Shown here piece by piece: positions 21,698 through 34,221 of a DNA stretch of 34,881 nt (the first letter of the stretch is position 1; the number at the start of each line of letters is the position of its first letter). Under the pieces are notes generated by a model. The model saw nothing but the letters and a program-made list of their open reading frames with translations, was not told the origin of the DNA and searched no databases. Made by a program: the position numbers and the translations under genes. Location: positions 1 to 34,881 of the IMG/VR virus record IMGVR_UViG_3300032318_001636. One strand, 5' to 3'. The stretch comes from a virus. Its lineage: Duplodnaviria; Caudoviricetes.

Positions 21698-22609
21698 TTA
21701 GCCTGCCCCCCCCCCCCCCCCCCTATCTTGAAACGCTGGCGTGAGCAGCTCGCGCGGCGTGATCGCGTTCCGCGTCAGGTGCGACGGGTCGATGTAGTTC
21801 CGCTCGGCGATCCTGGAGCCTGGGACGTGGCCCAGGTGGGCCGTCGCCGATCCAGGGCGTTGGATCTCGACGTCCGTCGCGGAGGCCCTGCGGAGCCACT
21901 TCCAGGTCCCTTTTCTGATGCCTGCCTTCTGGACGAGCCTGGCGAACTGATCGTCGAACGTTTCATGGCTGGCGAGCCATGGCGTGACGAGTTGCCTGGG
22001 GGCGAGCTCAAGCGAGACTCGCAGGGCATCGAAGGTCGACGGCGACAGCTGGCAGATCACAGGCCGACCTGTCTTCGACTGGACAAGGCCGACGGCGCCG
22101 GACGGCCGCACGTCTGCGACAGGCAGCCTGAACTGGTCGCCTTGCCGAAGGCCGGTGTCCCATGCCATCCGGATCGCCAGGTCGAACCAGGCGGACCTGC
22201 GGAGCCCTGTCCTATGCCACCGTTTAAGGCTCTGGCATGCCTCGAGCAGGGCGGAAACCTCGGACCAGTCCCAGCACGTCGGCGCCTTGTACGGGCATTT
22301 CACGGAGCGTATGCGCCGCGTCGGCGGCTCGCAGAGCCCTTCGTCGGCGGCCGCTCTCCACAGGGCCAGGAGGCCAACCTTCTTCGACCTGACAGTCTCC
22401 GGCTCGACGCCGCTGGCCGCGTAATCGCGCAGCCACGCGGAGACGCTTGTCTCATCGAGCTCGTCGAGCCGGACTGGGTGTCCGGCCCACCGCTCGAACA
22501 GGCGCGCGGTGATCGCGTACTGCCTGACCGTCTCCGGCCTGACGTCTCTGAGGAGGCTGTAGTTTGCGGCGTACGCTGACAGCGTGGCCGGGCCTGACTT
22601 GCAATACAT
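21698..22609 (-). CDS. int: Tyrosine recombinase / integrase
   Basis: TGLRQGD (Arg), QSKT (Lys), KWLRR (HxxR variant), LGH, RNY (Tyr); next to a tRNA-derived att. Confidence 0.93.
   Translation of the reverse strand: MYCKSGPATLSAYAANYSLLRDVRPETVRQYAITARLFERWAGHPVRLDELDETSVSAWLRDYAASGVEPETVRSKKVGLLALWRAAADEGLCEPPTRRIRSVKCPYKAPTCWDWSEVSALLEACQSLKRWHRTGLRRSAWFDLAIRMAWDTGLRQGDQFRLPVADVRPSGAVGLVQSKTGRPVICQLSPSTFDALRVSLELAPRQLVTPWLASHETFDDQFARLVQKAGIRKGTWKWLRRASATDVEIQRPGSATAHLGHVPGSRIAERNYIDPSHLTRNAITPRELLTPAFQDRGGGGGAG
21706..21723. repeat. C18/G18 homopolymer in the integrase 3' end
   Basis: 18 consecutive C on the + strand. Confidence 0.9.
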
Positions 22610-22784
22610 GGGACCGGACCGTCACGAGTCGGACTGGGCGCTCCTGCGGCCCCCTCCGACGCCCTCCGCACTCCCTCGTGGAGCGGGTTAGTGGTGCCAT
22701 CCTCCGGACGGCTGGCTTGCTCGTCAAACGCCCCGCAAAACCGGATCTACGGTTCCAGTAGGTGGCCGCTACGGCTCCAGTTGG

Positions 22785-22834
22785 GCATCGGTCTACGGAA
22801 CCGAAGGTTGCAGGTTCGAGCCCTGCGGGGTGTA
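22785..22834 (+). mobile_element. Putative attP core: 3' two-thirds of tRNA-Arg(ACG)
   Basis: Anticodon arm TCGGT-CTACGGA-ACCGA, T arm GCAGG-TTCGAGC-CCTGC, 3' acceptor strand GGGGTGT+A; no D arm or 5' acceptor strand upstream. Confidence 0.88.
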
Positions 22835-22841
22835 CATGCTC

Positions 22842-22872
22842 GCCACCTCAACGCTACGCGCGTTGGGGTGGC
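22842..22872 (+). terminator. 13-bp hairpin following the tRNA fragment
   Basis: GCCACCTCAACGC-TACGC-GCGTTGGGGTGGC (one G-U pair). Confidence 0.6.
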
Positions 22873-22883
22873 CTGGGCAACTT

Positions 22884-22912
22884 GTTGATGGATCAACTCG
22901 TATTCCTACACT
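22884..22912 (+). promoter_or_regulatory. Putative promoter with overlapping palindrome
   Basis: TTGATG-16 nt-TACACT; GTTGAT-GG-ATCAAC overlaps the -35. Confidence 0.55.
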
Positions 22913-22920
22913 CTGGGGCT

Positions 22921-23163
22921 ATGGACATGTTGCTGGACAAGGGCGGGCGGAAGATCGCAACCGCTGACGAGCTGGCCGAGGCGATTGGCGTCCACTCGAG
23001 CAACATCCGCAACTGGGCGCGGAACGGCCAGCTGACGCAGCTGGTGGAATCCCCCCGCCGCGTCTTCTACTACGTCGACGAGGTCAAAGCCTTGAACAAG
23101 GCCAAGATCGACCTGCGGAAGAAGCGCGGCGGGAGGCCGCGGAAGAAGGGCACGGCAGCCTAA
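22921..23163 (+). CDS. MerR/excisionase-like HTH protein
   Basis: TADELAEAIGVHSSNIRNWARNGQL...RVFY; AT-hook-like RGGRPRK; ends TAA; divergent from int across attP. Confidence 0.85.
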   Translation: MDMLLDKGGRKIATADELAEAIGVHSSNIRNWARNGQLTQLVESPRRVFYYVDEVKALNKAKIDLRKKRGGRPRKKGTAA

Positions 23164-23337
23164 CCTCCTGCGCAGCGGCAGCTTGAGTGCGCCAGCTCGA
23201 TAGGCCTCAACGCCATCGGCCTCGAGGTGCCGGTTGGCGTATCGAATGGCCAGCTCTCCGGCATGATCTCACAGGCCGTCGGCCGATAGCCCGTTTCCGC
23301 TGAAAAACGCAGCGGGCAAGAATCTTTCAACCTGGGC

Positions 23338-23367
23338 TTGACCAATAAACGATAGAGAGCATAGGTT
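23338..23367 (+). promoter_or_regulatory. Putative early promoter
   Basis: TTGACC followed 18 nt later by TAGGTT in an AT-rich intergenic stretch; CCAATAAAC overlaps it and recurs at 23507. Confidence 0.45.
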
Positions 23368-23422
23368 CTCGTCGCGTCATGGATGACGCTGACATTTGGC
23401 TCTGGTTTTCAAGGAGGAAAGC

Positions 23423-23494
23423 ATGGACGCACAGGTGTGGATCGAGCTGCTCGTGGTTGTGCTGAAGATCTTCGCGGCAGGCCTCGCCGGCTAG
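23423..23494 (+). CDS. 23-aa hydrophobic peptide MDAQVWIELLVVVLKIFAAGLAG
   Basis: AAGGAGG RBS 5 nt before ATG; single TM-like helix; followed by T7. Confidence 0.65.
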   Translation: MDAQVWIELLVVVLKIFAAGLAG

Positions 23495-23530
23495 TTTTTT
23501 TACGATCCAATAAACACTAGGGAGAATCGC

Positions 23531-23800
23531 ATGGACCCGCATCTTCCGGAATACCTTGCGGCCGCCGGCAACCTGCACGAGCAGACGCCGACGCCAAGCG
23601 AACGCCGCACGGCCTTCGAGAACTACTCGGTCGGCGACGAGATCACGTTTCGGCTGGCCGGCTGGAGCAATTCCAGCAGCGACAGCGGACGCGTCTGCGA
23701 CATGCACGAGGAGCGGCTGACGCTGCTCGTGGAGACGTCGACCGACGTCGTCGAGCTGGACCCGAGGCCGTGGCCGGTGGGCAACGTTTTGCCGTTTTGA
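23531..23800 (+). CDS. Hypothetical protein
   Basis: GGGAG RBS; 89 aa; ends in LPF. Confidence 0.75.
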   Translation: MDPHLPEYLAAAGNLHEQTPTPSERRTAFENYSVGDEITFRLAGWSNSSSDSGRVCDMHEERLTLLVETSTDVVELDPRPWPVGNVLPF

Positions 23801-23930
23801 GTAGGAGCCGCCCAGCGGGGACCGCTGGTGCGGTAGGAGGCGGCCGGAGGCCGCGTAGCAGGGAAGCAAGTTCACCCGCCGAGCTCGGACGCGAGGCGGG
23901 ATTCACGACGAGAAGCAAAGGACGCAAAAG

Positions 23931-24884
23931 ATGAGTGGATTCAAGAAGGCAACAAAGGCCGCCGCGAAACTGCGGGCGGCGATCTTTGGACCGAGCGGGG
24001 CCGGGAAGACGTTCACCAGCCTGCGGGTGGCGACGGGCCTGGCGGACGGCCAGCAGATCGCGGTGATCGACACCGAGCGCGGATCGGCCAGCAAGTACGC
24101 GGACCGGTTCGCGTTCGACGTGCTCGAGCTGGCCGACCAGACCATCGACGGCTACGTCGAGGCGATCCGCCAGGCGGCGCAGGCCGGGTATCCGGTCCTC
24201 GTGATCGACTCGCTGTCGCACGGCTGGCAGACGCTGCTCGAGGAGGTCGAGAAGCTGGCGAAGGCCAAGTACCGCGGGAACACCTGGTCGGCCTGGTCCG
24301 AGGGGACGCCGCTCCAGCGGCGGCTCGTACAGGCGATCCTGGGCTATCCCGGCCACGTCATCGCCACGATGCGGTCGAAGACCGAGTGGACGACCGTCGA
24401 CGACGGCCGCGGCAAGAAGAGCCCGCAGCGTGTCGGCCTGGCCCCCGAGCAGGGCAAAGGCGTCGAGTACGAGTTCGACCTGCTGGTCGAGATTTCGACC
24501 GAGCACATTGCGAACGTGATCAAGGACCGTACCGGGCGATTCCAGGACAAGCTGCTCGACAAGCCTGGCGAGGACTTCGGCCGCGACCTGGCGGCCTGGC
24601 TGGCGGACGGGATCCCGGCCCCTGTGGCGTCGGCGCCGACGCCTGCAAAAACCGCTGACGCTACCAGCGGTACAGGGGCCGGCCATCCCGAGCCGCCGCT
24701 CTTCGACCGGATCACGGCGCACGTAGCCGAGGCCGCCAGCGTGCGGACGCTTGGTCGGATTGCAGACAGGATCGACGTCCTGGCAAGCGACGGCCAGCTG
24801 ACGTCGCAGCAGGCACAGGAGCTGCACGCCCGCGTGGGGCGTCGGCACGACCAGATTGAACCCAAGACGCAGGAGGTGGGCTGA
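23931..24884 (+). CDS. AAA_24 / Sak4-like recombination ATPase
   Basis: GPSGAGKT Walker A, IDTERGS, LVIDSLSH, YEFD, KDRT motifs. Confidence 0.9.
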   Translation: MSGFKKATKAAAKLRAAIFGPSGAGKTFTSLRVATGLADGQQIAVIDTERGSASKYADRFAFDVLELADQTIDGYVEAIRQAAQAGYPVLVIDSLSHGWQTLLEEVEKLAKAKYRGNTWSAWSEGTPLQRRLVQAILGYPGHVIATMRSKTEWTTVDDGRGKKSPQRVGLAPEQGKGVEYEFDLLVEISTEHIANVIKDRTGRFQDKLLDKPGEDFGRDLAAWLADGIPAPVASAPTPAKTADATSGTGAGHPEPPLFDRITAHVAEAASVRTLGRIADRIDVLASDGQLTSQQAQELHARVGRRHDQIEPKTQEVG

Positions 24885-25351
24885 TGGTTGATTTCCGTTT
24901 CGACGAGGGATTCGACGAGCCCGCGGCACCCGCCAGGGGCGAGCGCCTGGACGTTCCCGAAGGCGTCCACGACTTCCTGATCAAGCAAGTGATCGACGAG
25001 GGCGAGCGGATCCAGGTCCGCCTTGAGCACGGCGACAGGCGGTACGGCTGGGTGTTCTGCCGGCTCCTGAAACAGGCCGACTGGGCGAAGCGGCTCGTCC
25101 GCGAGCTGGCGAAGGCCCTGGGCATGACGCAGGAGGAATGGCTCCTGGCGGACGTCGGAGACATCGCGGGGCGCCGCGTCCGGGCCGAGATCGTCCACGT
25201 CCAGAAGGACAAGCTGTTCGTGAACGTGAACCACTTCCTGCCGATCGAGGAGATCGCCCAGGAGGCCGCAGCCAAGGCCAAGGCACGAGCGCCGGCGGCC
25301 AAGGCGACCGCAGCCCTGTCCGAGCAGGTCCACGACGACATCCCGTTCTGA
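24884..25351 (+). CDS. ssDNA-binding protein-like (DUF669-type)
   Basis: VPEGVHDFLI start and acidic DDIPF C-terminus; follows the Sak4-like ATPase. Confidence 0.75.
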   Translation: MVDFRFDEGFDEPAAPARGERLDVPEGVHDFLIKQVIDEGERIQVRLEHGDRRYGWVFCRLLKQADWAKRLVRELAKALGMTQEEWLLADVGDIAGRRVRAEIVHVQKDKLFVNVNHFLPIEEIAQEAAAKAKARAPAAKATAALSEQVHDDIPF

Positions 25352-25411
25352 GGGCAGCCCAGCGGCTGCCGTGTGTGTGATGGATCGAGGTCTTTTTTCA
25401 AGGAGGATCCC

Positions 25412-25726
25412 ATGCGTTGGATGGTTTTCATGACTCTGGCCCTGTTCGTGGCCGCTGCCCAGGCCCACGCCGAGAACGTCATCACGGTCACCACGATCGT
25501 GTCGGCCCAGGAGGCCGCCGAGCAGATGGCCAGGACTGGCGTCCTGCGGCACTGCGGCCGGGCCGGCGGCCGTCGTGAGGGCATCGGCTTCAGCTCGAGC
25601 TCGGCCGACGCCGCCGTCCGCAGCTGCTGCTACTACCAGGACGCGATGCGTGGCCGTTACCGCATCGTCGAGCGCGGCGTGGCCCGCGGGCCTCGAGGCT
25701 GGTTCGCCGTCATCCGCTACGAGTGA
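25412..25726 (+). CDS. Secreted small protein, possibly a reduced CAP/SCP-like domain
   Basis: Signal peptide ending AQAHA; AQEAAEQMA..G.LRH...EGIG...GVARG..GWFAV; AAGGAGG RBS. Confidence 0.7.
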   Translation: MRWMVFMTLALFVAAAQAHAENVITVTTIVSAQEAAEQMARTGVLRHCGRAGGRREGIGFSSSSADAAVRSCCYYQDAMRGRYRIVERGVARGPRGWFAVIRYE

Positions 25727-25890
25727 TTCGTCGCCGGCCCGCCCTGGCTCGGCTGTGCATCGCAGCCGTATGGGTCGCCCAGCCGGTCGTGGCGCGTAAC
25801 GCCGGCAGCTGCGGAGTCGGCTTCAAACCTTCCCGACTGCCGCAGCCGGTCGCCGCACGTTACGCGGCCAATACACAAGGGAATCGAGCA

Positions 25891-26034
25891 ATGCCACCGA
25901 GGACGCAAGTCGACCGCGAGCGAGTCAAGCAGCTCGCGGCCCAGGGCCTGAAGCCGGACGCGATCGCCAAGCGGACCGGCGTGTCGACGGCGGCCGTGTA
26001 CGGCGTGCTCCGGAACTACAGGCGGCGGAGGTAG
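25891..26034 (+). CDS. Small HTH protein (47 aa)
   Basis: LAAQGLKPDAIAKRTGVSTAAVYGVL helix-turn-helix. Confidence 0.8.
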   Translation: MPPRTQVDRERVKQLAAQGLKPDAIAKRTGVSTAAVYGVLRNYRRRR

Positions 26035-26037
26035 GTC

Positions 26038-26295
26038 ATGGACGACCAGGACGTCGACGACTGCGACGGCATGTCGGCATACCGCCGGCGGGAGGCGGAT
26101 CTCGACGAGCTGCTGGAGATCGCGGCCCGGCATCTGCGGGCGGCGGAGCTCGAGCAGCAGGCCGACACGCCGGCCACGCCGCCCACTGCCCTGCCAGCTC
26201 ACCCGCGGTTCGCCAGGCACGTCGCGCGGCTGTCTGACCGCGAGCAGGACCACTGGATCGACCGGATGCGGAATCGGTACGGGGGGGAGTGGTGA
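26038..26295 (+). CDS. Hypothetical protein
   Basis: GGAGGT RBS; fills the gap in the early operon. Confidence 0.65.
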   Translation: MDDQDVDDCDGMSAYRRREADLDELLEIAARHLRAAELEQQADTPATPPTALPAHPRFARHVARLSDREQDHWIDRMRNRYGGEW

Positions 26296-26309
26296 TGCTG
26301 AAATCCAGC

Positions 26310-26591
26310 ATGGACGCGATCAACGATCTGCCGATCTTCGCGGCTGCTCGCGCGAAGGATCCGGAGACGTCGCACGACGCCGCCAAGCGGGCGCCGGTGG
26401 CCGGTCACTGCCGCCTGGTGCTCGAGGCCCTGGCGGCCGGGCCGGCCGGACAGACGGAGCTGGCCAGGCGATGCGGGCTGTTGCCGCACGAGGTGAACAA
26501 GCGGCTGGCGGATCTGAAGCGGCACGGGCTGGCCGAGCTTACGGGCCGCAAGGCGAACGGTGGGCGGGAGCGGGAATGGAGGGTGGCGTGA
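26310..26591 (+). CDS. Winged-helix DNA-binding protein
   Basis: AR.KDPETSHDAA then VLEAL..GP.GQTELA...VNKRLADL...GLAE; start could be 26292 or 26295. Confidence 0.8.
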   Translation: MDAINDLPIFAAARAKDPETSHDAAKRAPVAGHCRLVLEALAAGPAGQTELARRCGLLPHEVNKRLADLKRHGLAELTGRKANGGREREWRVA

Positions 26592-26733
26592 TGAAAAAAG
26601 TGCCAATAAAAGACGTTCTACGAACAGGACTTTCTTGATCGGTGCCCTACTCGTGCTGAAGAGTTGCGGGCCGCTCTGGTTGATTTGATCGCGTCGTGCG
26701 ATGCGACGAAGTAATGAAGACAGGAGGCTCATC

Positions 26734-27603
26734 ATGAGCTACGAGTTGATTGGCACGCCGCGTGCCCACAAAGTGACGAAAACGATGGCAGAAAAGTGGT
26801 CAGGCATGGAGCAGGTACGCAACGACAGGCCGCTTTCTGAGAAGCGTGTTGACGCGTACAAAAAAATGGCAGCGCGAGGGCTGATGCGCCCGGTGCACTG
26901 GGCAAAGGCTCACTGCCTGGAGACGCAAGAGAACTACCGCGTCAACGGTAAGCATACAAGCACTGCGTTCTCGCAGATGGACGACCTGCCAGACACCCTG
27001 CAGGCGATCATCGAAGAATACCAATGCGACACGCTTCGCGATGTTGCAGAGCTGTATGCAACATTCGACGCGCGGATCACGATTCGCACGACCGGTGACA
27101 TCAACAAGTCGTTCGCGGCTGTCGACCCTGAGCTGCACGAAGTTCCTGTCAAAATAATCAACTTGGCAGTGTCGGCGATTTCGCTGTGGAAGTGGGGCGA
27201 GAACTACGCTCAACACGCAGCTTCCGAGCGCGCGGAATGTCTGTTCGAGCCCGAGTGCAAGTCGTTCGTCCGTTGGTTGTGTGACATAGCCAGCGACTCG
27301 AAGGTGAACAAGCGGATGCGTCGGTCGCCTGTTGTGTGGGCTATGTACGCGACATTCAAGAAATCGCGAAAGGACGCCACAGAATTCTGGAAGGCTGTTC
27401 GTGATGAAACTGGAACGTCTCCTACACTCCCCGATCGCAAGATCTCGCGCTGGCTAATGGAAAACGCTGTTGACTCGACAGGTCGGCGTGCTGGAGCGAA
27501 GGAGATGTACGCCAGGTGCGTCATCGCGTGGAACGCATGGCGTACGCAGGCCAAGACAAACCTATCGTACTACCCGGACGCAAAGCTTCCGGTAGCAAAG
27601 TAA
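26734..27603 (+). CDS. Hypothetical protein with ParB-like N-terminal region; lower GC
   Basis: NDRPLSEKRVDAY...VNGKHT resembles ParB-like NR...DGQHR; AGGAGG RBS. Confidence 0.6.
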   Translation: MSYELIGTPRAHKVTKTMAEKWSGMEQVRNDRPLSEKRVDAYKKMAARGLMRPVHWAKAHCLETQENYRVNGKHTSTAFSQMDDLPDTLQAIIEEYQCDTLRDVAELYATFDARITIRTTGDINKSFAAVDPELHEVPVKIINLAVSAISLWKWGENYAQHAASERAECLFEPECKSFVRWLCDIASDSKVNKRMRRSPVVWAMYATFKKSRKDATEFWKAVRDETGTSPTLPDRKISRWLMENAVDSTGRRAGAKEMYARCVIAWNAWRTQAKTNLSYYPDAKLPVAK

Positions 27604-27672
27604 TCGACGCCGCCCTCGTGATAGGCACGGTGCCGCTTCGACGCGGCTGGGCGGAATTGAAAGGAGGCCTAC

Positions 27673-28545
27673 ATGGCCGGTGAATGGATCCCATACGACG
27701 TCTGCCTTCCCCAGAAGCCCGAGGTACTCGAGCTCGTCGACCGGACCGGCCTGCCGGCTGACCAGGTCGTCGGGCGGCTGATGATGCTCTGGGGCTGGGC
27801 GGCCCTGAACAGCTCGGACGGGACGGCCCGTATGTCTGTCCGGCTGCTGGGACGGCTGTGCGGAGGCGACGAGGAGTTCTGGCGGGAGGTCGAATCGGTG
27901 GGCTGGCTGGTGATCGACGGAGACAACGGGACTGTGGCGATCCCCGGATGGGAGCGTCGGTTCTCGAAATCCGCGAAAAACCGGGCAATGCACGCCATCC
28001 GGGCCGGCGAGGCCAAGGCCAGCGCACCGGCGGGTGCGCAAAAGCGCACCGGCGGGTGCGCAGACGCGCACCCACGGGTGCGCAAAAGCGCACTAGAGAG
28101 AAGAGAGAGAGAAGAGAGAAATTCTTCTTCTTCCCCCGGTGTCGCTGCGCTCGAGGACCAGGGCAGCGGCCCTGCCGGGCCGCCAGGCTGGGACACGCTC
28201 CGGAAGGCCTGGGCAGCCGGCACGGGTCGGCCCTGGACGCTGCCAGACGCCCCGGACAAGGCCGCCGACAGGCTTGCGGAGGAGGGCTGGTTCGCCAAGG
28301 CCCTGGCGGCGATCGAGGCCCTGCCGCGGTGCCGGTACTTCCGGGATCCGGTGACGCTGCCACAGCTGCTGAACGCCGGGTTCGTCGACAAGGTCCTGGG
28401 CGGCCAGTTCGACAACCCACGCGAGCATCGGCCGACGGGCCGGCCTGACGACCGGCCGCCGCCTCAGGCCTTCAGCGGTGAGGACGCGGCCCGGTTCGAG
28501 GCCACGAAGCGGGCCATGGTCCAGAAGCTCAAGGAGATCGCCTGA
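27673..28545 (+). CDS. Phage replication initiator (replisome organiser-like)
   Basis: MAGEWI...KPEV...VVGRL..LWGWA...VGWL N-domain; internal iterons and purine tract; AAGGAGG RBS. Confidence 0.85.
   Translation: MAGEWIPYDVCLPQKPEVLELVDRTGLPADQVVGRLMMLWGWAALNSSDGTARMSVRLLGRLCGGDEEFWREVESVGWLVIDGDNGTVAIPGWERRFSKSAKNRAMHAIRAGEAKASAPAGAQKRTGGCADAHPRVRKSALERREREERNSSSSPGVAALEDQGSGPAGPPGWDTLRKAWAAGTGRPWTLPDAPDKAADRLAEEGWFAKALAAIEALPRCRYFRDPVTLPQLLNAGFVDKVLGGQFDNPREHRPTGRPDDRPPPQAFSGEDAARFEATKRAMVQKLKEIA
28022..28131. repeat. Putative replication origin: 22-bp-period palindromic iterons plus purine tract
   Basis: GCGCACC-N4-GGTGCGC at 28022, 28044, 28066, a partial copy at 28088, then an AG-only run and TTCTTCTTC. 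Confidence 0.8.
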
Positions 28546-28793
28546 TGACGTCCACCCGCCTGAAGATCCTGTTCTGGATTCAACGCTACTGCGAAGAGAA
28601 GGGCTACAGCCCGACGCTCCGGGAGCTGTGCGTGGCGTTCCACTGGTCGAGCCCAAACGCCGCCAAGCAGTACCTGGATGGCCTGGCCAAGGCGGGCATG
28701 GTGCGGCGCCAGGAGCGGATCGCCAGGACGTTGACGCTCACGCCGGCCGGGCTCGACGTGCTCGAGCGGCATACCGCCGGCCTGACGCAATGA
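28545..28793 (+). CDS. LexA-type DNA-binding domain protein (no peptidase domain)
   Basis: GYSPTLRELC..F..SSPNAA...L..L...G...R....AR.L; only 82 aa. Confidence 0.9.
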   Translation: MTSTRLKILFWIQRYCEEKGYSPTLRELCVAFHWSSPNAAKQYLDGLAKAGMVRRQERIARTLTLTPAGLDVLERHTAGLTQ

Positions 28794-28842: not shown

Positions 28843-29166
28843 ATGGGTGCAATCGCCGAGAATCTGCCTGGCCAGCTGAACCTGGCGTTCCGCCGCGGCG
28901 ACGAGTACGGCACGCTCGTCGATTTCTCCGTTTCGCTTACGGGCTACACGTTCGCGGCACAGATCGTCTCGGCGATCACCGGGGCCACGATGGCGACCCC
29001 GACTGTCACGGCCGTCGACCTGGCGGCCGGCCAGGTGAACGTGTCGCTGACAGAGCTGCAAACGGCGGCCCTCGAGGCCGGAACGTACGCGTGGCGGCTC
29101 GTGTGGACGGCCCCCGGCACCGTGACGCGTACGGCCCTGGCAGGATTCGTTGAGGTGATGCCATGA
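28843..29166 (+). CDS. BppU-like fibre adaptor protein, copy 2
   Basis: PGQLNLAF..GDE, SLTGYTFAA, GQVNVSLTELQTAAL, YAWRLVW; paralogue of 17053-17445. Confidence 0.72.
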   Translation: MGAIAENLPGQLNLAFRRGDEYGTLVDFSVSLTGYTFAAQIVSAITGATMATPTVTAVDLAAGQVNVSLTELQTAALEAGTYAWRLVWTAPGTVTRTALAGFVEVMP

Positions 29167-29420
29167 ACGTCTCCGTGACGTCGCAGCAGATCTCGGCCAC
29201 CGCGGCCGGCACGGCCGTGAATGCGTCTGTCGCGTCCGCAACCGTGACGGCGACTGCCACGGGCGGAATCGGGCCTGCAGGCGCCGCTGTCGGCACGCTG
29301 TCGCAGCTCCAGGACGTCGAGCTCGTCAACGCCGCCACCGGCGACCTGCTGCGACGAGACGGGGCCAAATGGAAGAACTACCCGGAGCGAGGCCTGATCC
29401 TGGACGGCGGAAACTGGTAA
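29163..29420 (+). CDS. Small fibre-associated protein
   Basis: LSQLQDV...GDLL....KWKN...LDGGNW motifs common in phage fibres. Confidence 0.7.
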   Translation: MNVSVTSQQISATAAGTAVNASVASATVTATATGGIGPAGAAVGTLSQLQDVELVNAATGDLLRRDGAKWKNYPERGLILDGGNW

Positions 29421-29433
29421 CGGAGGGCACGCG

Positions 29434-30129
29434 ATGCCAACAGACAACGAGATCCGTATCCGCAGGCGAGCTCTCGGCGGCGCCAGCGGCGCACCGTCGA
29501 GCCTGCTGCAATCCGAGCTGGCCTGGTCTGAGGTCGATCAGATCCTGTACATCGGCCAGGGCAGCGGCGGCACGGCCACCGTGATCGCAGTTGGCGGGCC
29601 AGGCAGCTACGCCACAAAGGCCTCCCCTGCCCTGACGGGAACGCCTACGGCCCCGACGGCGGCGTCTGGCACAAACACGACGCAGATCGCCACGACCGCA
29701 TTCGTGGCCGCAGCCGTGTCGGCGGTTGACGTGTCGAGCCAGCTGTCGAGCTACGCTCCGCTGGCGTCTCCCACGTTCACCGGGACGCCTGCCGCACCGA
29801 CGGCCTCTGCCGGCACCAATACGACGCAGATCGCCACGACGGCCTACGTCTCGACGGCGATCTCGAACCTGGTCAACGGCGCCGGATCGGCCCTGGACAC
29901 GCTCAAGGAGCTGGCGGACGCCCTGGGGAACGACGCGTCGTTCTCGACGACGATCACGGCGTCCATCGGCAACAAGTTGGCCAAGGCCTCGAATCTGTCT
30001 GATCTGACGGACGCCTCTGCGGCCAGGACAAACCTTGGCCTGGGCTCAATGGCCACGCAGTCCGCGTCGAACGTCAGCATTACGGGCGGCACGCTGTCAG
30101 GCGTGAGCATCAACGGCGGCACGTTCTAA
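29434..30129 (+). CDS. Tail fibre-like protein
   Basis: Two SP.LTGTP.APTA..GTNTTQIATTA.V repeats, ALDTLKELADALGND, ARTNLGLG motifs. Confidence 0.88.
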   Translation: MPTDNEIRIRRRALGGASGAPSSLLQSELAWSEVDQILYIGQGSGGTATVIAVGGPGSYATKASPALTGTPTAPTAASGTNTTQIATTAFVAAAVSAVDVSSQLSSYAPLASPTFTGTPAAPTASAGTNTTQIATTAYVSTAISNLVNGAGSALDTLKELADALGNDASFSTTITASIGNKLAKASNLSDLTDASAARTNLGLGSMATQSASNVSITGGTLSGVSINGGTF

Positions 30130-30141
30130 GCGAGGTGCCGC

Positions 30142-31440
30142 GTGCCCGGGCTGATTCAGTACAGCAACACCGCAGGCAATACGCCAACGTTGCTGGGCAA
30201 CGCCGACATCGGCATAAACCAGGCCGACGGAAAGCTGTACTACCGCAACTCGAGCGGCGTCGTGACGCAGTTCGCCGGCGGCGGCTCGTCCGGAGTGGTC
30301 GAGGCCGCTACAGCGTCGGCGTTCCCAGCCACCGGCGCGGCCTCGACGATCTACCTCGACCGCTCGACAAATCGCATGTACCGGTGGGCATCCGAGGGCG
30401 CGTACGCCGAGATCGGCAGCCTGGACTCGGACTCGAGCAACTGGTCGCTGCTGTACCCGACCGCCCCGACGAGCGTGACCGGCACCGTTGGCAACGCGCA
30501 GGTGGCACTGGCGTGGACGGCGCCGACCTACACGGGCACGCCGATCACCGACTACGTCATCCAGTATTCAAGCAACAGCGGCAGCACCTGGACGACGTTC
30601 TCGGATGGAACTTCGACGGCAACGTCTGCCACCGTGACCGGGCTGACCAACAGCACGGCCTACGTTTTCCGGGTCGCGGCCGTGAACTCGCTTGGAACTG
30701 GCAGCTATTCAAGCGCCAGCGGCAGCGTCACGCCAGGTAGTGATCCAAACTTCGCGTCCGTCTCGCTCCTCCTGCACATGGACGGCAGCAGCAACAGCAC
30801 CACGTTCACCGACTCGTCGTCGTCGGCAAAAACTGTCACGGCGGTCAGCCCCGCCGTTATCTCCACCACTCAAAGCAAGTTTGGCGGCTCGTCCGGCTAT
30901 TTCTCGAGCACGACCAGCGCGCTGACGACGCCATACGCAGCCAATCTGGATTTCGGCTCCGGCGATTTCACGATGGAATGGTGGCAATACTGGACGGGTG
31001 GCAATTCGATTTTCTGCTGGTCTTCGGACTATCGAATTGGAATCCTCGGCAACTACGGTGCCGCGACGAGCGACAAATTGGCTCTGTGCATCTCGTCAAA
31101 CGGCAGCACATGGAATCTGGCACAACCAGACACTCTCGGCTCCACGTTCGCCGGCTCGTCGGTTGCCGCGACGAAAAACGCCTGGCAGCACATCGCGCTT
31201 CAGCGCAGCGGCACTAGCTGGCAGATGTTTTTTGACGGCACTCGCGTGCTGAACTACACGGCATCTGGATCAATCGCGTCGGCGTCTGGCCTGACGTTTC
31301 GCATCGGCGGCCCGTGGCCCGGCGCAGGGCCGGGAAATTTTCAGGGCTACATGGACGAGTACCGCATCACGAAGGGCGTGGCGCGATACACCACAACCGG
31401 CAACTTCACGGCACCAACGGCCGCGTTCTTCAATAGCTAA
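30142..31440 (+). CDS. FN3 + concanavalin A/LamG-like domain adhesin
   Basis: PTAPTSV..WTAP..ITDYVIQYS..YVFRVAAVN (FN3); VSLLLHMDG, GDFTMEWW, WQHIA, GYMDEYRITKGVARY (LamG). Confidence 0.92.
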   Translation: MPGLIQYSNTAGNTPTLLGNADIGINQADGKLYYRNSSGVVTQFAGGGSSGVVEAATASAFPATGAASTIYLDRSTNRMYRWASEGAYAEIGSLDSDSSNWSLLYPTAPTSVTGTVGNAQVALAWTAPTYTGTPITDYVIQYSSNSGSTWTTFSDGTSTATSATVTGLTNSTAYVFRVAAVNSLGTGSYSSASGSVTPGSDPNFASVSLLLHMDGSSNSTTFTDSSSSAKTVTAVSPAVISTTQSKFGGSSGYFSSTTSALTTPYAANLDFGSGDFTMEWWQYWTGGNSIFCWSSDYRIGILGNYGAATSDKLALCISSNGSTWNLAQPDTLGSTFAGSSVAATKNAWQHIALQRSGTSWQMFFDGTRVLNYTASGSIASASGLTFRIGGPWPGAGPGNFQGYMDEYRITKGVARYTTTGNFTAPTAAFFNS

Positions 31441-31443
31441 AAA

Positions 31444-31671
31444 ATGGCATTTCCATCATCACCCACGGTCGGACAACAGGTCACAGAGAGTGGCCGTCTG
31501 TACCAATGGTCGGGCACGGTCTGGAATCTCGTCTCGGTTGTGGCTGGTCATGCGAGTACGCACGGTGCAGGCGCCGCTGATGCGGTGACGATTCAAACAT
31601 CGCAGATCAGCGATCTGGCGGCAGGCGCGAACGCAGCCGCACGGCTCTACCTCTGGCAGGCATTTCGATAG
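31444..31671 (+). CDS. Small virion-associated protein
   Basis: MAFPSSPTVGQ...YQWSGTVW motif frequent in fibre proteins. Confidence 0.72.
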   Translation: MAFPSSPTVGQQVTESGRLYQWSGTVWNLVSVVAGHASTHGAGAADAVTIQTSQISDLAAGANAAARLYLWQAFR

Positions 31672-31681
31672 GAGATAAGCA

Positions 31682-32065
31682 ATGGCAACCAGCCCAGCAT
31701 TCGCAACCACGCCCCGCATCGGTGCCGTCAGCATCGCAACTGCCGATAGCTCGTACACGGCTCCAAGCAACGTCGGCACAGTCATCACGGGCGTAGCGGC
31801 AGGCACACGCATCGCAGAGGTTATTGTCAAGTGCGCTGCAACGTCTGCGGCCGCAATTGTGCGGCTGTTTCTGCACGATGGCACCTCATACATCCTCCTA
31901 GACGAGGTGACCGTGGCCGCCGCCACAGGATCATCAACGGTCCAGCAGACTCGCGTCTCGGTGGTCTACAACAACCTGATTCTGCCGTCCGCGTCCTGGT
32001 CCCTGCGGGCGACGACGAGCGTCTCCCAGGCAACGCACGTCACGGCTCTCGGCGCTGACCTGTGA
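31682..32065 (+). CDS. Hypothetical virion-associated protein
   Basis: AGGAG RBS; Ala/Thr-rich beta protein. Confidence 0.75.
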   Translation: MATSPAFATTPRIGAVSIATADSSYTAPSNVGTVITGVAAGTRIAEVIVKCAATSAAAIVRLFLHDGTSYILLDEVTVAAATGSSTVQQTRVSVVYNNLILPSASWSLRATTSVSQATHVTALGADL

Positions 32066-33243
32066 ACGTCGGCATCCTGCCATTGCCGACGCAGTACGCC
32101 CAGCCGCCGCGTGCGGTCGGAGGCTCGCCCGCTCGTCCATCGCAGATGCCTGGAGGCATTGGCGAGTCGCTGGATTGGCGGCGGCCGAGCTGGCAGGCGA
32201 CACAGGACGCCGTGTACGCGAGCTCGAGGTCAAGCAATTGGCAATACGGCACGCGGGCAACTGCCGCTACCATATCCGCCGTCACAAACAACTACGTCGG
32301 GTCAGTGCTGGCGACAGACGGCTGTGTGTGGGCTACTCCATTCGCGGCGACTGGCGGGCTGGTGTTCGATTCCAACAACAACCGCACATACGTCGTTGGG
32401 TCGTTCGGAGGCGGCAGCAATTTCACCAGCGGCGTTCTCATGAACGACGGTCGCGTATTTGTGATCCCGAGAGCCTCTACGACGGCGAGGATTGTCGATC
32501 TCACCAACAGCACAGTGACCACGCCAGGCGGCACGTTCCCGGGAGGGAATGCGTATACTGGCGGGTGTCTGATTGACGGAGGGAGGCGGATCTACCTTGC
32601 ACCGTCGCTGCAAGCGTCGGCAGGAATCTACGACCTACAGCGGCAAACGCTTACCACGCCGGCCGGGACGTTCACGTTCAATTCTGGCAGCAGTCTGACT
32701 GCCACTTCCGGCGCGTTCCTACTGCCGGATGGGAGAGTGTTTTGCGCGCCGTGCCATACTTCGGCTGCGATCTATGACCCGGTGGCCGACTCGTTGTTCA
32801 TTTCGTCGGCGGCTCTGGGCTACGACGGCGGGACGTCGGCCACAAGATTTTTCGGCGCAGTCCTGCTGCCGAATGGCGACGAAATCGCACTTATTCCGCA
32901 GAATGTCACCGCCGTCGTCGTCTACAACTGGCGACGAGACACGGCGAGGACCGTCGCTGGAACAGCCACAGGGCATCTGGGCGGGCAACTCATGCCTGAC
33001 GGGAGCGTGCTGCTCGTACCTGGATCATCGACAGCGGCTCGCGCGTACCGGCCGGATACCGACACGCTCACAGCGCTGCCAGACACATATTCTGGCAGCA
33101 ATCCGGCCGCCGGAGCGCATGTGCTTCAAGACGGGCGTCTAGTGATGATGCCGCGCTCGGATTCCGCTGTGCGGACCTGCGGCACTCGCGCCACGCCGGT
33201 TGACGCCAACATCCAGCTATCGCCGTTTTTCAACCACAGGTAG
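32062..33243 (+). CDS. Beta-propeller (kelch-like) repeat protein
   Basis: About seven G..L..DGRV...P.....A.IYD repeats. Confidence 0.8.
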   Translation: MNVGILPLPTQYAQPPRAVGGSPARPSQMPGGIGESLDWRRPSWQATQDAVYASSRSSNWQYGTRATAATISAVTNNYVGSVLATDGCVWATPFAATGGLVFDSNNNRTYVVGSFGGGSNFTSGVLMNDGRVFVIPRASTTARIVDLTNSTVTTPGGTFPGGNAYTGGCLIDGGRRIYLAPSLQASAGIYDLQRQTLTTPAGTFTFNSGSSLTATSGAFLLPDGRVFCAPCHTSAAIYDPVADSLFISSAALGYDGGTSATRFFGAVLLPNGDEIALIPQNVTAVVVYNWRRDTARTVAGTATGHLGGQLMPDGSVLLVPGSSTAARAYRPDTDTLTALPDTYSGSNPAAGAHVLQDGRLVMMPRSDSAVRTCGTRATPVDANIQLSPFFNHR

Positions 33244-33246
33244 GCC

Positions 33247-33750
33247 ATGATTACATACACGGACGGCACTGACCGCGAGGCAGTCATCACGGCGGTTTCT
33301 GAGACAGGATGGACGGCGAGCGTCTACGAATCGTTTGCCGACTATCGAAACTGCCAGACGCCGACGGAGGCGCGGACGTTTCCCGGTACACCGAATCGAC
33401 GGGCAATGCTCTCGGCCTGGCCCGGCTGGACGCCGCGAGTTCGGGACGATGGCAACTGGTCGCTGCTGCCCGAATCCACCGACGACCTGCCAGAGTTGCC
33501 GGCCGTCCCCGTGAGCGTCACGGCTCGGCAGATACGCCTCTATTTGGTCAGGCACGGCATCCCACTCGCACAGGTCGACGCCGCCATCGACGCCATCGCC
33601 GACCCGCAGCAGCGCGAGGAGGTGAGGGTGGAGTGGGACTACGCGCCGTACGTCGAGCGGTCGCACCAGATGCTGGTGCCACTCGCTGCGGCCCTCGGGC
33701 TCAACGAGGCCCAGGTCGACGATGCGTTCCGCGAGGCGGCGACGATTTGA
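33247..33750 (+). CDS. Fibre-assembly-like hypothetical protein
   Basis: C-terminal VTARQIRL.L...EWDYA..VER...LGL...QVDDAFREAA, usually found beside fibre genes. Confidence 0.78.
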   Translation: MITYTDGTDREAVITAVSETGWTASVYESFADYRNCQTPTEARTFPGTPNRRAMLSAWPGWTPRVRDDGNWSLLPESTDDLPELPAVPVSVTARQIRLYLVRHGIPLAQVDAAIDAIADPQQREEVRVEWDYAPYVERSHQMLVPLAAALGLNEAQVDDAFREAATI

Positions 33751-33759: not shown

Positions 33760-33801
33760 AGAAAATGGGGAACGTGTCGGCGTCTCACGGAGGAGACGTC
33801 G

Positions 33802-34221
33802 ATGATTGTCCTACAGGTGCCAGGCCAGCCGGTGCCGCAGCCGCGTCCGCGGTTCACGCGTCACGGTGGCGGCCGGACGTACACGCCAAGCGGCCACGCA
33901 ATCCACGGCTACCGTCAGGCGATCGTGCTGATGGCCCAGGCGGAGAACGCCGAGCAGCTGGTCGGCGCCGTGGCCCTGGACGTGGACGCCGTGTTCGAGC
34001 GTCCGCCGTCGCATTGGCGAAAGCACGACCTGAAACCTGACGCCCCGGCATGGCCAAGGGCCGACGGCGACAACGTCCTGAAGGCCGTGGCCGATGCGCT
34101 GACGGACGCAGGAGTATGGCAGGACGACGACCAGGTCGTCCGATGGTCGATCCACAAGCGGTACGCGTCCAGGAACGAGCCTGCCAGGACTGTCATACGG
34201 ATCCGAAAGGCCGAGCCGTGA
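33802..34221 (+). CDS. rusA: RusA family Holliday junction resolvase
   Basis: PG.PVPQPRPR, DGDNVLKAVADAL, VWQDDDQV motifs. Confidence 0.93.
   Translation: MIVLQVPGQPVPQPRPRFTRHGGGRTYTPSGHAIHGYRQAIVLMAQAENAEQLVGAVALDVDAVFERPPSHWRKHDLKPDAPAWPRADGDNVLKAVADALTDAGVWQDDDQVVRWSIHKRYASRNEPARTVIRIRKAEP

Follow-up and report, generated by a model that had tools for sequence, protein, structure and literature searches.

Conserved A(N)GGAN hairpins and a GGA-rich RNA element in the early operon of a temperate siphophage suggest translational control by host CsrA

Introduction

Are the early genes of a temperate phage held in check at translation by CsrA of its host? The question is raised by a window of 34,881 nt, the whole of IMG/VR record IMGVR_UViG_3300032318_001636 (CheckV completeness 100%), which is a temperate siphophage genome with packaging and virion genes, an integrase and an att core followed by the early operon. 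In its early region, ATGGAC and ATGGAT words lie on start codons and in leaders, some as loops of hairpins, and from these words the original prediction proposed that host CsrA gates early initiation and thereby ties lysis–lysogeny to nutrient state. The present analysis suggests that hairpins displaying A(N)GGAN are a conserved property of the early operon in this phage and its relatives, that they are accompanied by a structured, GGA-rich RNA element absent from that prediction, and that a CsrA paralogue of the host probably binds to these RNAs and holds back translation, adding a second lock behind a predicted DNA-binding repressor. The motifs are conserved, confined by strand and register, and supported by covariation in the element, and genomes of the likely host family contain csrA, as do two groups of related phage operons.

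The best CsrA/RsmE site is an ANGGAX hexaloop on a stem closed by a C–G pair, in which N and X are free and N is dispensable at a cost (PMC4005645), and AUGGA in apical loops near start codons is the motif bound in vivo (PMC5207318).

Results

Hairpin-borne ANGGAN is enriched in the early region

All the ATGGAC and ATGGAT words listed by the original prediction lie where it had placed them. In positions 22835-27700, a region picked after the motif had been seen, ATGGA[CT] occurs 10 times against a mean of 1.91 in 300 dinucleotide shuffles, and ANGGAN tops a stem of at least 4 bp 4 times, where the shuffles average 0.50. Neither count was equalled in any shuffle, so that the excess over shuffled controls is borne out. 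Plain ANGGAN is not enriched in this region (27 versus 22.4, p 0.18), and the remaining 30 kb of the + strand holds 2 ANGGAN hairpins with stems of at least 4 bp. With G-U pairs allowed, the stems around the hexaloops measure 4 bp at 22888, 1 at 22921, 5 at 23379, 2 at 23423, 0 at 23531, 2 at 25380, 4 at 26038 and 2 at 26310. Two further hairpin sites, which had escaped the original prediction, lie at 23411 (6 bp, on the Shine–Dalgarno (SD) sequence of a 23-aa open reading frame (ORF)) and at 33787 (12 bp, before rusA).

Two protein scans yielded 128 viral loci of the family, and 119 loci with early-region genes, three of them from metagenome-assembled genomes (MAGs), form 54 non-redundant clusters; 20 long records were added to supply late genes, and homologue starts are those of our own gene caller. 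On the early sense strand of the 54 clusters, 127 of 1612 ANGGAN words (7.9%) top a stem of at least 4 bp, compared with 2.3% for the other 63 A-N-xyz-N loops, which places ANGGAN at rank 1 of 64. The minus strand has 7 such hairpins among 311 words, and 46/54 clusters carry more ANGGAN hairpins on the + than on the − strand. The stem enrichment peaks exactly at the 6-nt register, the closing pair is C–G in 77/127 hairpins, and loops unrelated to the SD are frequently on stems (ATGGAT 22/107, ACGGAT 13/99).

The motif is also positioned with respect to translation starts. Genes starting ATG-GA make up 84/452 of the early and 23/447 of the late genes, whereas internal Met codons followed by GA are similar in the two classes (10.8% versus 10.4%), and a hairpin lies within 50 nt of the start in 67/494 early versus 11/537 late genes. 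Tests made per protein family (87 early and 68 late families), which lessen the effect of kinship, favor early over late for hairpins (p 0.011), ANGGAG SDs (p 0.0014) and ANGGA count (p 1e-7), but not for ATGGA starts (Mann–Whitney p 0.48). Thus, the motif near the start is the signal, and not Met-Asp as such, on which the original prediction had laid its emphasis. C-ANGGAN-G within −20 to +15 is likewise commoner in early families when 24 of them are set against 36 late ones (p 1.5e-4). Where a GGAG-type SD has a base other than A at −1, position −2 is A in 73/169 early versus 29/154 late genes (p 2.6e-6), a retention that fits the requirement of CsrA and not pairing with the anti-SD. As at CsrA targets, the A(N)GGAX loop sits directly on a stem with a C–G closing pair, both in the family and in the window at 23379, 23411, 26038 and 33787, and it overlaps an SD or start codon, often with two sites.

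Individual early and rusA leaders carry conserved sites

The early features described here lie on the + strand. First in the predicted early transcript is the 5′ hairpin GCGTC-ATGGAT-GACGC (23374-23389). A(N)GGA directly follows the promoter in 28/45 loci examined, 2 of these 28 having another hairpin, and 12 of the remaining loci lack a promoter match. The loop is ATGGAT in 14, AGGAG in 4, AAGGAG in 4, ACGGAG in 2, ATGGAG in 2 and other in 2; N is therefore free or, in AGGAG, missing, as A(N)GGAX allows. The stem is CGTC/GACG, and 17/20 distinct hairpins are C–G closed.

The next site is a conserved hairpin at 23405-23422 that presents the SD of the 23-aa hydrophobic ORF (23423-23494) as an AAGGAG loop (23411-23416). 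This SD is ANGGAG in 16/16 homologues, and a hairpin site lies within 60 nt in 15/16. A run of seven T (23495-23501) directly follows the ORF, and a T-run of at least 5 follows it in 7/16 homologues; leader-peptide attenuation was not adopted as a general explanation because hairpin and T-run occur together in only about 7/16. The peptide is itself a conserved first early gene and could be a membrane toxin, an exclusion factor or a protease modulator; two homologues match DinQ-like DqlB below cut-off (E about 0.01).

The 89-aa ORF (23531-23800) has an AGGGAG SD at 23519 and an ATGGAC start. An ATGGA start is found in 77% of its 47 homologues, and the start site is C–G closed in 27/35, though not in the window. 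Asp or Glu occupies position 2 in 97/120 database homologues. The model of the protein is a helix plus an SH3/Tudor-like barrel (predicted local distance difference test score 87), with no match at E <= 0.001 in PDB or BFVD and no named Atlas family; since the predicted fold is not that of CsrA, the ORF was rejected as a phage CsrA. Farther downstream, ATGGAT (25380) and an AAGGAG SD (25400) precede the 104-aa ORF at 25412 (25380-25405). Here the SD is conserved, being ANGGAG in 13/15 homologues with N as A, C or T, whereas the upstream ATGGAT, the word that had been singled out before, is present but not conserved. Outside the early operon, a conserved 12-bp hairpin (33775-33804, + strand) presents ACGGAG on the SD of rusA, a gene through which the packaging genes are probably entered; the AUG, too, is enclosed in the stem of this hairpin. 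Among 31 distinct leaders of this gene, 12 have the loop on the AUG and 8 (one doubtful; window included) have it on the SD.

Several sites on which the original prediction relied fared differently. Conservation holds for 23374-23389, for the hairpin on the SD that precedes the 23-aa ORF and for the 89-aa start, but not for 22884, 22921, 26038 or 26310. Of the five ATGGAC starts proposed, 26310 is probably not one: the winged helix-turn-helix gene most likely begins at 26295, where it is coupled to the stop of the preceding gene (TGATG), which puts GC-ATGGAC-GC (26308-26317) at codon 6 (+15). In the window, 4/12 early genes start ATG-GA, compared with a late rate of 5.1% (p 0.0024). GTTG-ATGGAT-CAAC (22884-22897), listed there among the hairpins, overlaps the −35 box and spacer of a promoter-like site of the helix-turn-helix (HTH) gene, and therefore probably does not lie within the HTH mRNA. 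The HTH start at 22921 is ATGGA in about 1/38 called homologue starts, one homologue (L097) also having ATGGA two codons upstream. GGTC-ATGGAC-GACC (26034-26047), on the AUG of an 85-aa ORF, has the canonical shape but is private to this phage, with an ATGGA start in 1/12 homologues.

A conserved GGA-rich RNA element follows the 89-aa ORF

Between the 89-aa ORF and the Sak4-like recombinase gene (23931-24884; PHROG 124; Pfam AAA_24) lies a 110-nt, four-hairpin, GGA-rich RNA element (23798-23907, + strand) with an RsmY/RsmZ-like build, just 3′ of which is the SD site GC-AAAGGAC-GC (23915-23925). The spacer 23801-23930 folds (z −3.36) into four hairpins whose loops carry GGA and whose linkers carry A(N)GGA. 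Among 12 sequences of one lineage, 13/25 pairs change on both sides, more than in all 500 shuffles and all slid controls. When 100 sources were scanned with a model built from one lineage, 55 copies were recovered, each of them in sense orientation; 54 lie −14 to 175 nt from sak4, the other being at a locus without a sak4 match, and no match arose in the 21 unrelated genome loci included in the scan. In the alignment fitted by this model, 25/25 pairs change on both sides and G-U exceeds A-C by 64 to 22, though the fit leans to structure and both figures are biased by it. In a second lineage the element lies under an overprinted ORF and is still kept.

A copy has 4-10 GGA, with a median of 7 where 2.7 would be expected, and these lie in loops and linkers of a conserved fold, as in CsrB, RsmY and RsmZ. 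In 52 distinct copies, A(N)GGA is retained in the 5′ arm in 48, in the linker in 45 and in the third hairpin (H3) in 51; H2 is a C-GGA-G triloop in 34/52, and H4 has the A(N)GGA form in 27/52. A T-rich tract (at least 4 T in 10 nt) follows H4 in 32/55 copies and is weak as a terminator. The element matched no Rfam family, and no hit to CsrB, RsmY or RsmZ arose in the window at E <= 1 or in 6 loci at E <= 5. A search for a host homologue gave 1 match in 5 genomes (150 candidates scored in each), antisense in a long coding gene, and was judged a chance hit.

A pattern scan for the element found 120 loci, 80 with flanks and 70 of these distinct; 2/70 matches (L264, L305) are chance coding matches. 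The 89-aa ORF lies upstream in 51/70, and downstream the gene is sak4 in 18 and others elsewhere (RecT confirmed for L240). In loci L236-L310, the gene 3′ of the element thus swaps among sak4, RecT-family and other genes while the element stays. In L245 and L247 a promoter-like TTGACG-N17-TACACT lies directly upstream of the element; the window showed no separate promoter-like site ahead of the element.

csrA is universal in the likely host family and present in some related phages

Several lines of evidence make a planctomycete the likely host. The tyrosine integrase (21698-22609, − strand; PHROG 1; Pfam PF02899/PF00589) is followed by an attP core (22785-22834, + strand) that is the 3′ part of a tRNA-Arg(ACG) (Rfam tRNA match 22771-22834), and this core is 96-98% identical over 48-51 nt to tRNAs in the order of genome G001. 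In the probable source sequencing run, the tRNA 5′ half is joined to the phage at 22785; four DNA runs confirm the window sequence and the att junction. Genes of the phage family lie on two MAG contigs, assigned to Planctomycetaceae and Planctomycetia: L129 (integrase and sak4) and L158 (sak4, ssb and rep at 71%), whose source MAGs both belong to one family. It is because these contigs carry family genes, and because the core matches tRNAs of that order, that a planctomycete host is likely.

A CsrA protein would accordingly be available in the cell, since csrA is found in 61/61 genomes of this likely, though inferred, host family, in 1-7 copies. fliW is present in 58/61, beside one csrA and after lptF/G. 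In two such loci (L227 and L228, from G001 and G343), fliW-csrA follows lptF/G, with a XerC-type gene in addition in L227, and the csrA copies are of about four types. Flagellin leaders were considered as a positive control in the host, but flagellin was found in 0/5 of the incomplete host-family genomes searched, and the full set of genes for a FliW–CsrA–flagellin checkpoint was thus not found there. A PF02599 profile search found no csrA in the window, which agrees with the original prediction. Among related phage records, 3/100 carry csrA (0/19 of the near-complete ones); the window and the 97/100 without csrA keep the sites. In L048 and L057, csrA lies between the GGA hairpins and sak4, and a second csrA type lies ~530 nt 3′ of the element in 4/70 distinct loci (L245, L247, L263, L297), where the element stands at the 5′ end of the operon holding that gene. 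R6, R44 and E46, residues that act in RNA binding by CsrA, are invariant in 10 host and phage copies.

A candidate repressor and operator-like words point to a lock at the DNA level

The + strand HTH gene (22921-23163), MerR/excisionase-like and next to attP, is a candidate immunity repressor. It has a promoter-like site (TTGATG at 22885, TACACT at 22907-22912) with a short leader, a layout found in 23/38 homologues, and a 13-bp terminator-like hairpin (22842-22872, + strand; RNAfold) separates the att tRNA from the 22884-22897 site. The early promoter-like site, TTGACC-N18-TAGGTT (23338-23367, + strand), has the same layout in relatives, where TTGAC-N17/18-TANNNT is conserved. Its spacer holds the operator-like word AATAAACGATA (23344-23354, + strand), and a second copy, AATAAACACTA (23509-23519, + strand), abuts the SD of the 89-aa ORF. 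Copies of this 11-nt word are phage-specific: over 20 loci, the match within a genome is 8.85/11 versus 6.65 when permuted, a value reached in 0/5000 permutations. Such a phage-specific repeated word suggests a codirectional MerR/Xis-like immunity repressor acting on direct repeats, and the HTH protein may be the one that reads it. No divergent repressor gene lies beside the early promoter, as the original prediction had observed; the HTH gene is codirectional and next to attP, and so the lambda-type cI/cro layout is absent.

Discussion

These comparisons lead us to think it very probable that host CsrA binds the phage leader and element RNAs, and probable, with somewhat less assurance, that its main role there is to repress translation of the early genes and rusA. 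Since there is probably also a repressor acting on the DNA, CsrA would form a second lock and not the sole one. The early transcript would start near 23374; CsrA dimers would bridge paired sites, the 5′ hairpin with the SD, or an SD with its AUG, and would prevent translation of the 23-aa and 89-aa ORFs, the recombinase gene and rusA. As a consequence, transcripts that leak through in a lysogen, or in a cell that is poorly suited, would remain untranslated. When the HTH repressor is lifted, transcripts may pile up until the GGA array soaks up CsrA and the lock is released, a step less supported than the others. That the array titrates CsrA in addition, giving a threshold, is a tentative proposal. 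On a similar footing stands the broader idea that the lysis–lysogeny decision of a widespread phage family is a titration of host CsrA by the array on the early transcript: as transcript or multiplicity rises, a threshold switch at the post-transcriptional level would flip. CsrA would then silence not only the first genes of the early programme but also entry into the packaging operon, with some members adding an autoregulated csrA; this broader idea is doubtful.

What endures of the original prediction is the gating of early initiation by host CsrA, for which enrichment, register, strand, C–G closing pairs, an N that varies or is absent, the shift of a loop between SD and AUG, host-family csrA and csrA in related operons all speak, while several of the sites it cited do not; the tie to nutrient state is without support here.

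A number of observations weigh against CsrA repression as the explanation. Non-early sense DNA is enriched for ANGGAN hairpins too, though less (41/827), as is host DNA (34/802), the ATGGA starts themselves fail at the family level, and the clusters are related, so pooled p-values overstate independence. In start-site ANGGAN stems, G-U and A-C number 21 and 26, and therefore wobble does not favor RNA. Four sites of the original prediction (22884, 22921, 26038, 26310) are private or misplaced, 5 loci have the promoter but no 5′ site, the hairpin is absent from 11/31 rusA leaders, and in the 89-aa family a constraint on the protein could account for Met-Asp-Ala. Within the element, H1 and H2 keep GGA (49/52 and 52/52) but have the canonical 5′ A in only 12/52 and 3/52, and H4 keeps GGA in 39/52 and lacks it in 13/52. 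The host assignment consists of two short MAG contigs plus a tRNA match made without an out-of-phylum control. Finally, unrelated sak4 regions give hairpins at 7/245 where csrA was not found and 31/704 where it was, or 13/585 when three loci are removed. An enrichment tracking host csrA had been seen with guessed host classes and weakened with verified csrA status. Because unrelated sak4 regions are mostly without signal, the feature is mainly family-specific, and the comparison by host csrA status does not prove csrA dependence. Elsewhere, L155, a Providencia alcalifaciens prophage (8 ANGGAN hairpins with stems of at least 4 bp in a 5.3-kb early region near a sak4-like gene), L156 (5 such hairpins) and L137, from a Phycisphaeraceae MAG (5), suggest that similar control may occur in unrelated prophages.

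Of the other explanations, the one that survives best, to which we nonetheless assign little weight, holds that CsrA binds but that the GGA array serves chiefly as a decoy RNA, disarming host CsrA so as to reprogramme the cell, with the start-site hairpins secondary; the decoy would be the 3′-end piece of a short early transcript or a small RNA of its own. The element's size and GGA density resemble Rsm small RNAs, it follows the 89-aa ORF in most loci yet has sak4 downstream in only 18, a T-rich tract often ends it, and it has its own promoter-like site in L245 and L247. The flaA mRNA of Campylobacter jejuni, which sponges CsrA in a FliW-type host, offers a precedent (PMC4894983). Yet the element always stands just ahead of an SD, like a leader, it has a weak terminator and, in the window, no separate promoter-like site, and conservation extends to the SD and AUG hairpins themselves.

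Somewhat less probable is a phage protein as reader of the GGA loops, most plausibly the 89-aa SH3/Tudor-like ORF acting as an autoregulated translational repressor. Small barrels of this kind can bind RNA, and the predicted fold is thus potentially suited. This ORF has the best conserved pair of SD and AUG sites, it directly precedes the element in most loci, and the C-GGA-G loops deviate from the CsrA optimum. Against this, the start-site motif agrees point by point with the rule for CsrA (an invariant A, an N that is free or missing, C–G closing), L245 and L247 carry the element without this ORF directly upstream and with csrA following, and the model has no significant fold match.

That no binding protein is involved, the pattern arising from strong SDs, GC-rich folding, N-terminal residue preference and common descent, is very improbable and already hard to hold. 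AAGGAG is itself an ANGGAN word, ATGGA starts are not enriched by family and the loci are related; but it is the non-SD loops that are most enriched, in exact register, and the −2 A test, the relocation of the rusA loop between SD and AUG and the covarying noncoding element all argue for a reader. GNA mini-hairpins form stable triloops, and HK022 put is an antitermination RNA. The least credible option is that CsrA has no part in the working of the element, which would act either as DNA hairpins bearing stable C-GNA-G triloops or as a put-like RNA serving antitermination or processing. In favor of this option, H2 is usually such a triloop, start-site wobble does not favor RNA, and the element stands ahead of recombinase genes with a T-tract at its end. 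Against it, the middle G does not vary, A(N)GGA words in single-stranded stretches are kept in 48, 45 and 51 of 52 copies at three places, all copies are on the sense strand, and the SD and AUG hairpins would be left unexplained.

CsrA repression, the reading we prefer, can be compared with known systems. The sites share with high-affinity CsrA/RsmE sites the loop, the closing pair, the optional N, the position on SD or start and the pairing of sites; they differ in being predicted sites on phage early and rusA mRNAs, in a likely planctomycete with several paralogues. The element has in common with RsmY, RsmZ and CsrB small RNAs a length of ~110-130 nt, a median of 7 GGA, GC-ANGGAN-GC mini-stems and a 3′ hairpin with T-tract, but it is without an Rfam match, lies in a phage operon and sometimes under an ORF, and has two loops mostly without the 5′ A. 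What it shares with the flaA/FliW system is the idea that, in a CsrA system of the FliW type, one mRNA acts as target and titrator at once; here the RNA is that of a phage, and the 5 host-family genomes searched yielded no flagellin. In Serratia ATCC 39006, loss of rsmA raises prophage expression and excision (PMC4046660), a likeness in that a host Csr protein restrains prophages; the main text of that paper does not contain the term GGA and gives no direct sites, whereas conserved candidate sites in cis are mapped here. Phages can also carry the gene themselves: csrA occurs in 30 phages (PMC7366521), and phage csrA PTXU04_00028 helps phage PTXU04 (PMC11879866). Two groups of relatives hold csrA in the early operon, but this phage and 97/100 records do not.

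In mostly non-subscription literature, taken without supplements on cross-linking and immunoprecipitation, we found no paper that maps sites for CsrA in the early operon or a regulatory circuit of a phage, and none describing this GGA element. Csr control is itself already known; the feature read here from sequence comparison is real and conserved, and would place such control on a phage switch. Candidate sites that persist across dozens of genomes, moving between SD and AUG, together with an unlisted structured RNA, provide short, directly testable RNAs and a candidate phage decoy for CsrA. They also provide a handle on planctomycete Csr biology, in which several paralogues and FliW occur apparently without flagellin.

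Two features outside these subjects deserve mention. A tail-fibre/baseplate-like gene block at 28843-33750 lies between the replication genes and rusA, separate from the main virion operon, and a gene for a stand-alone LexA DNA-binding domain (28545-28793), with an AAGGAG SD, follows the replication initiator.

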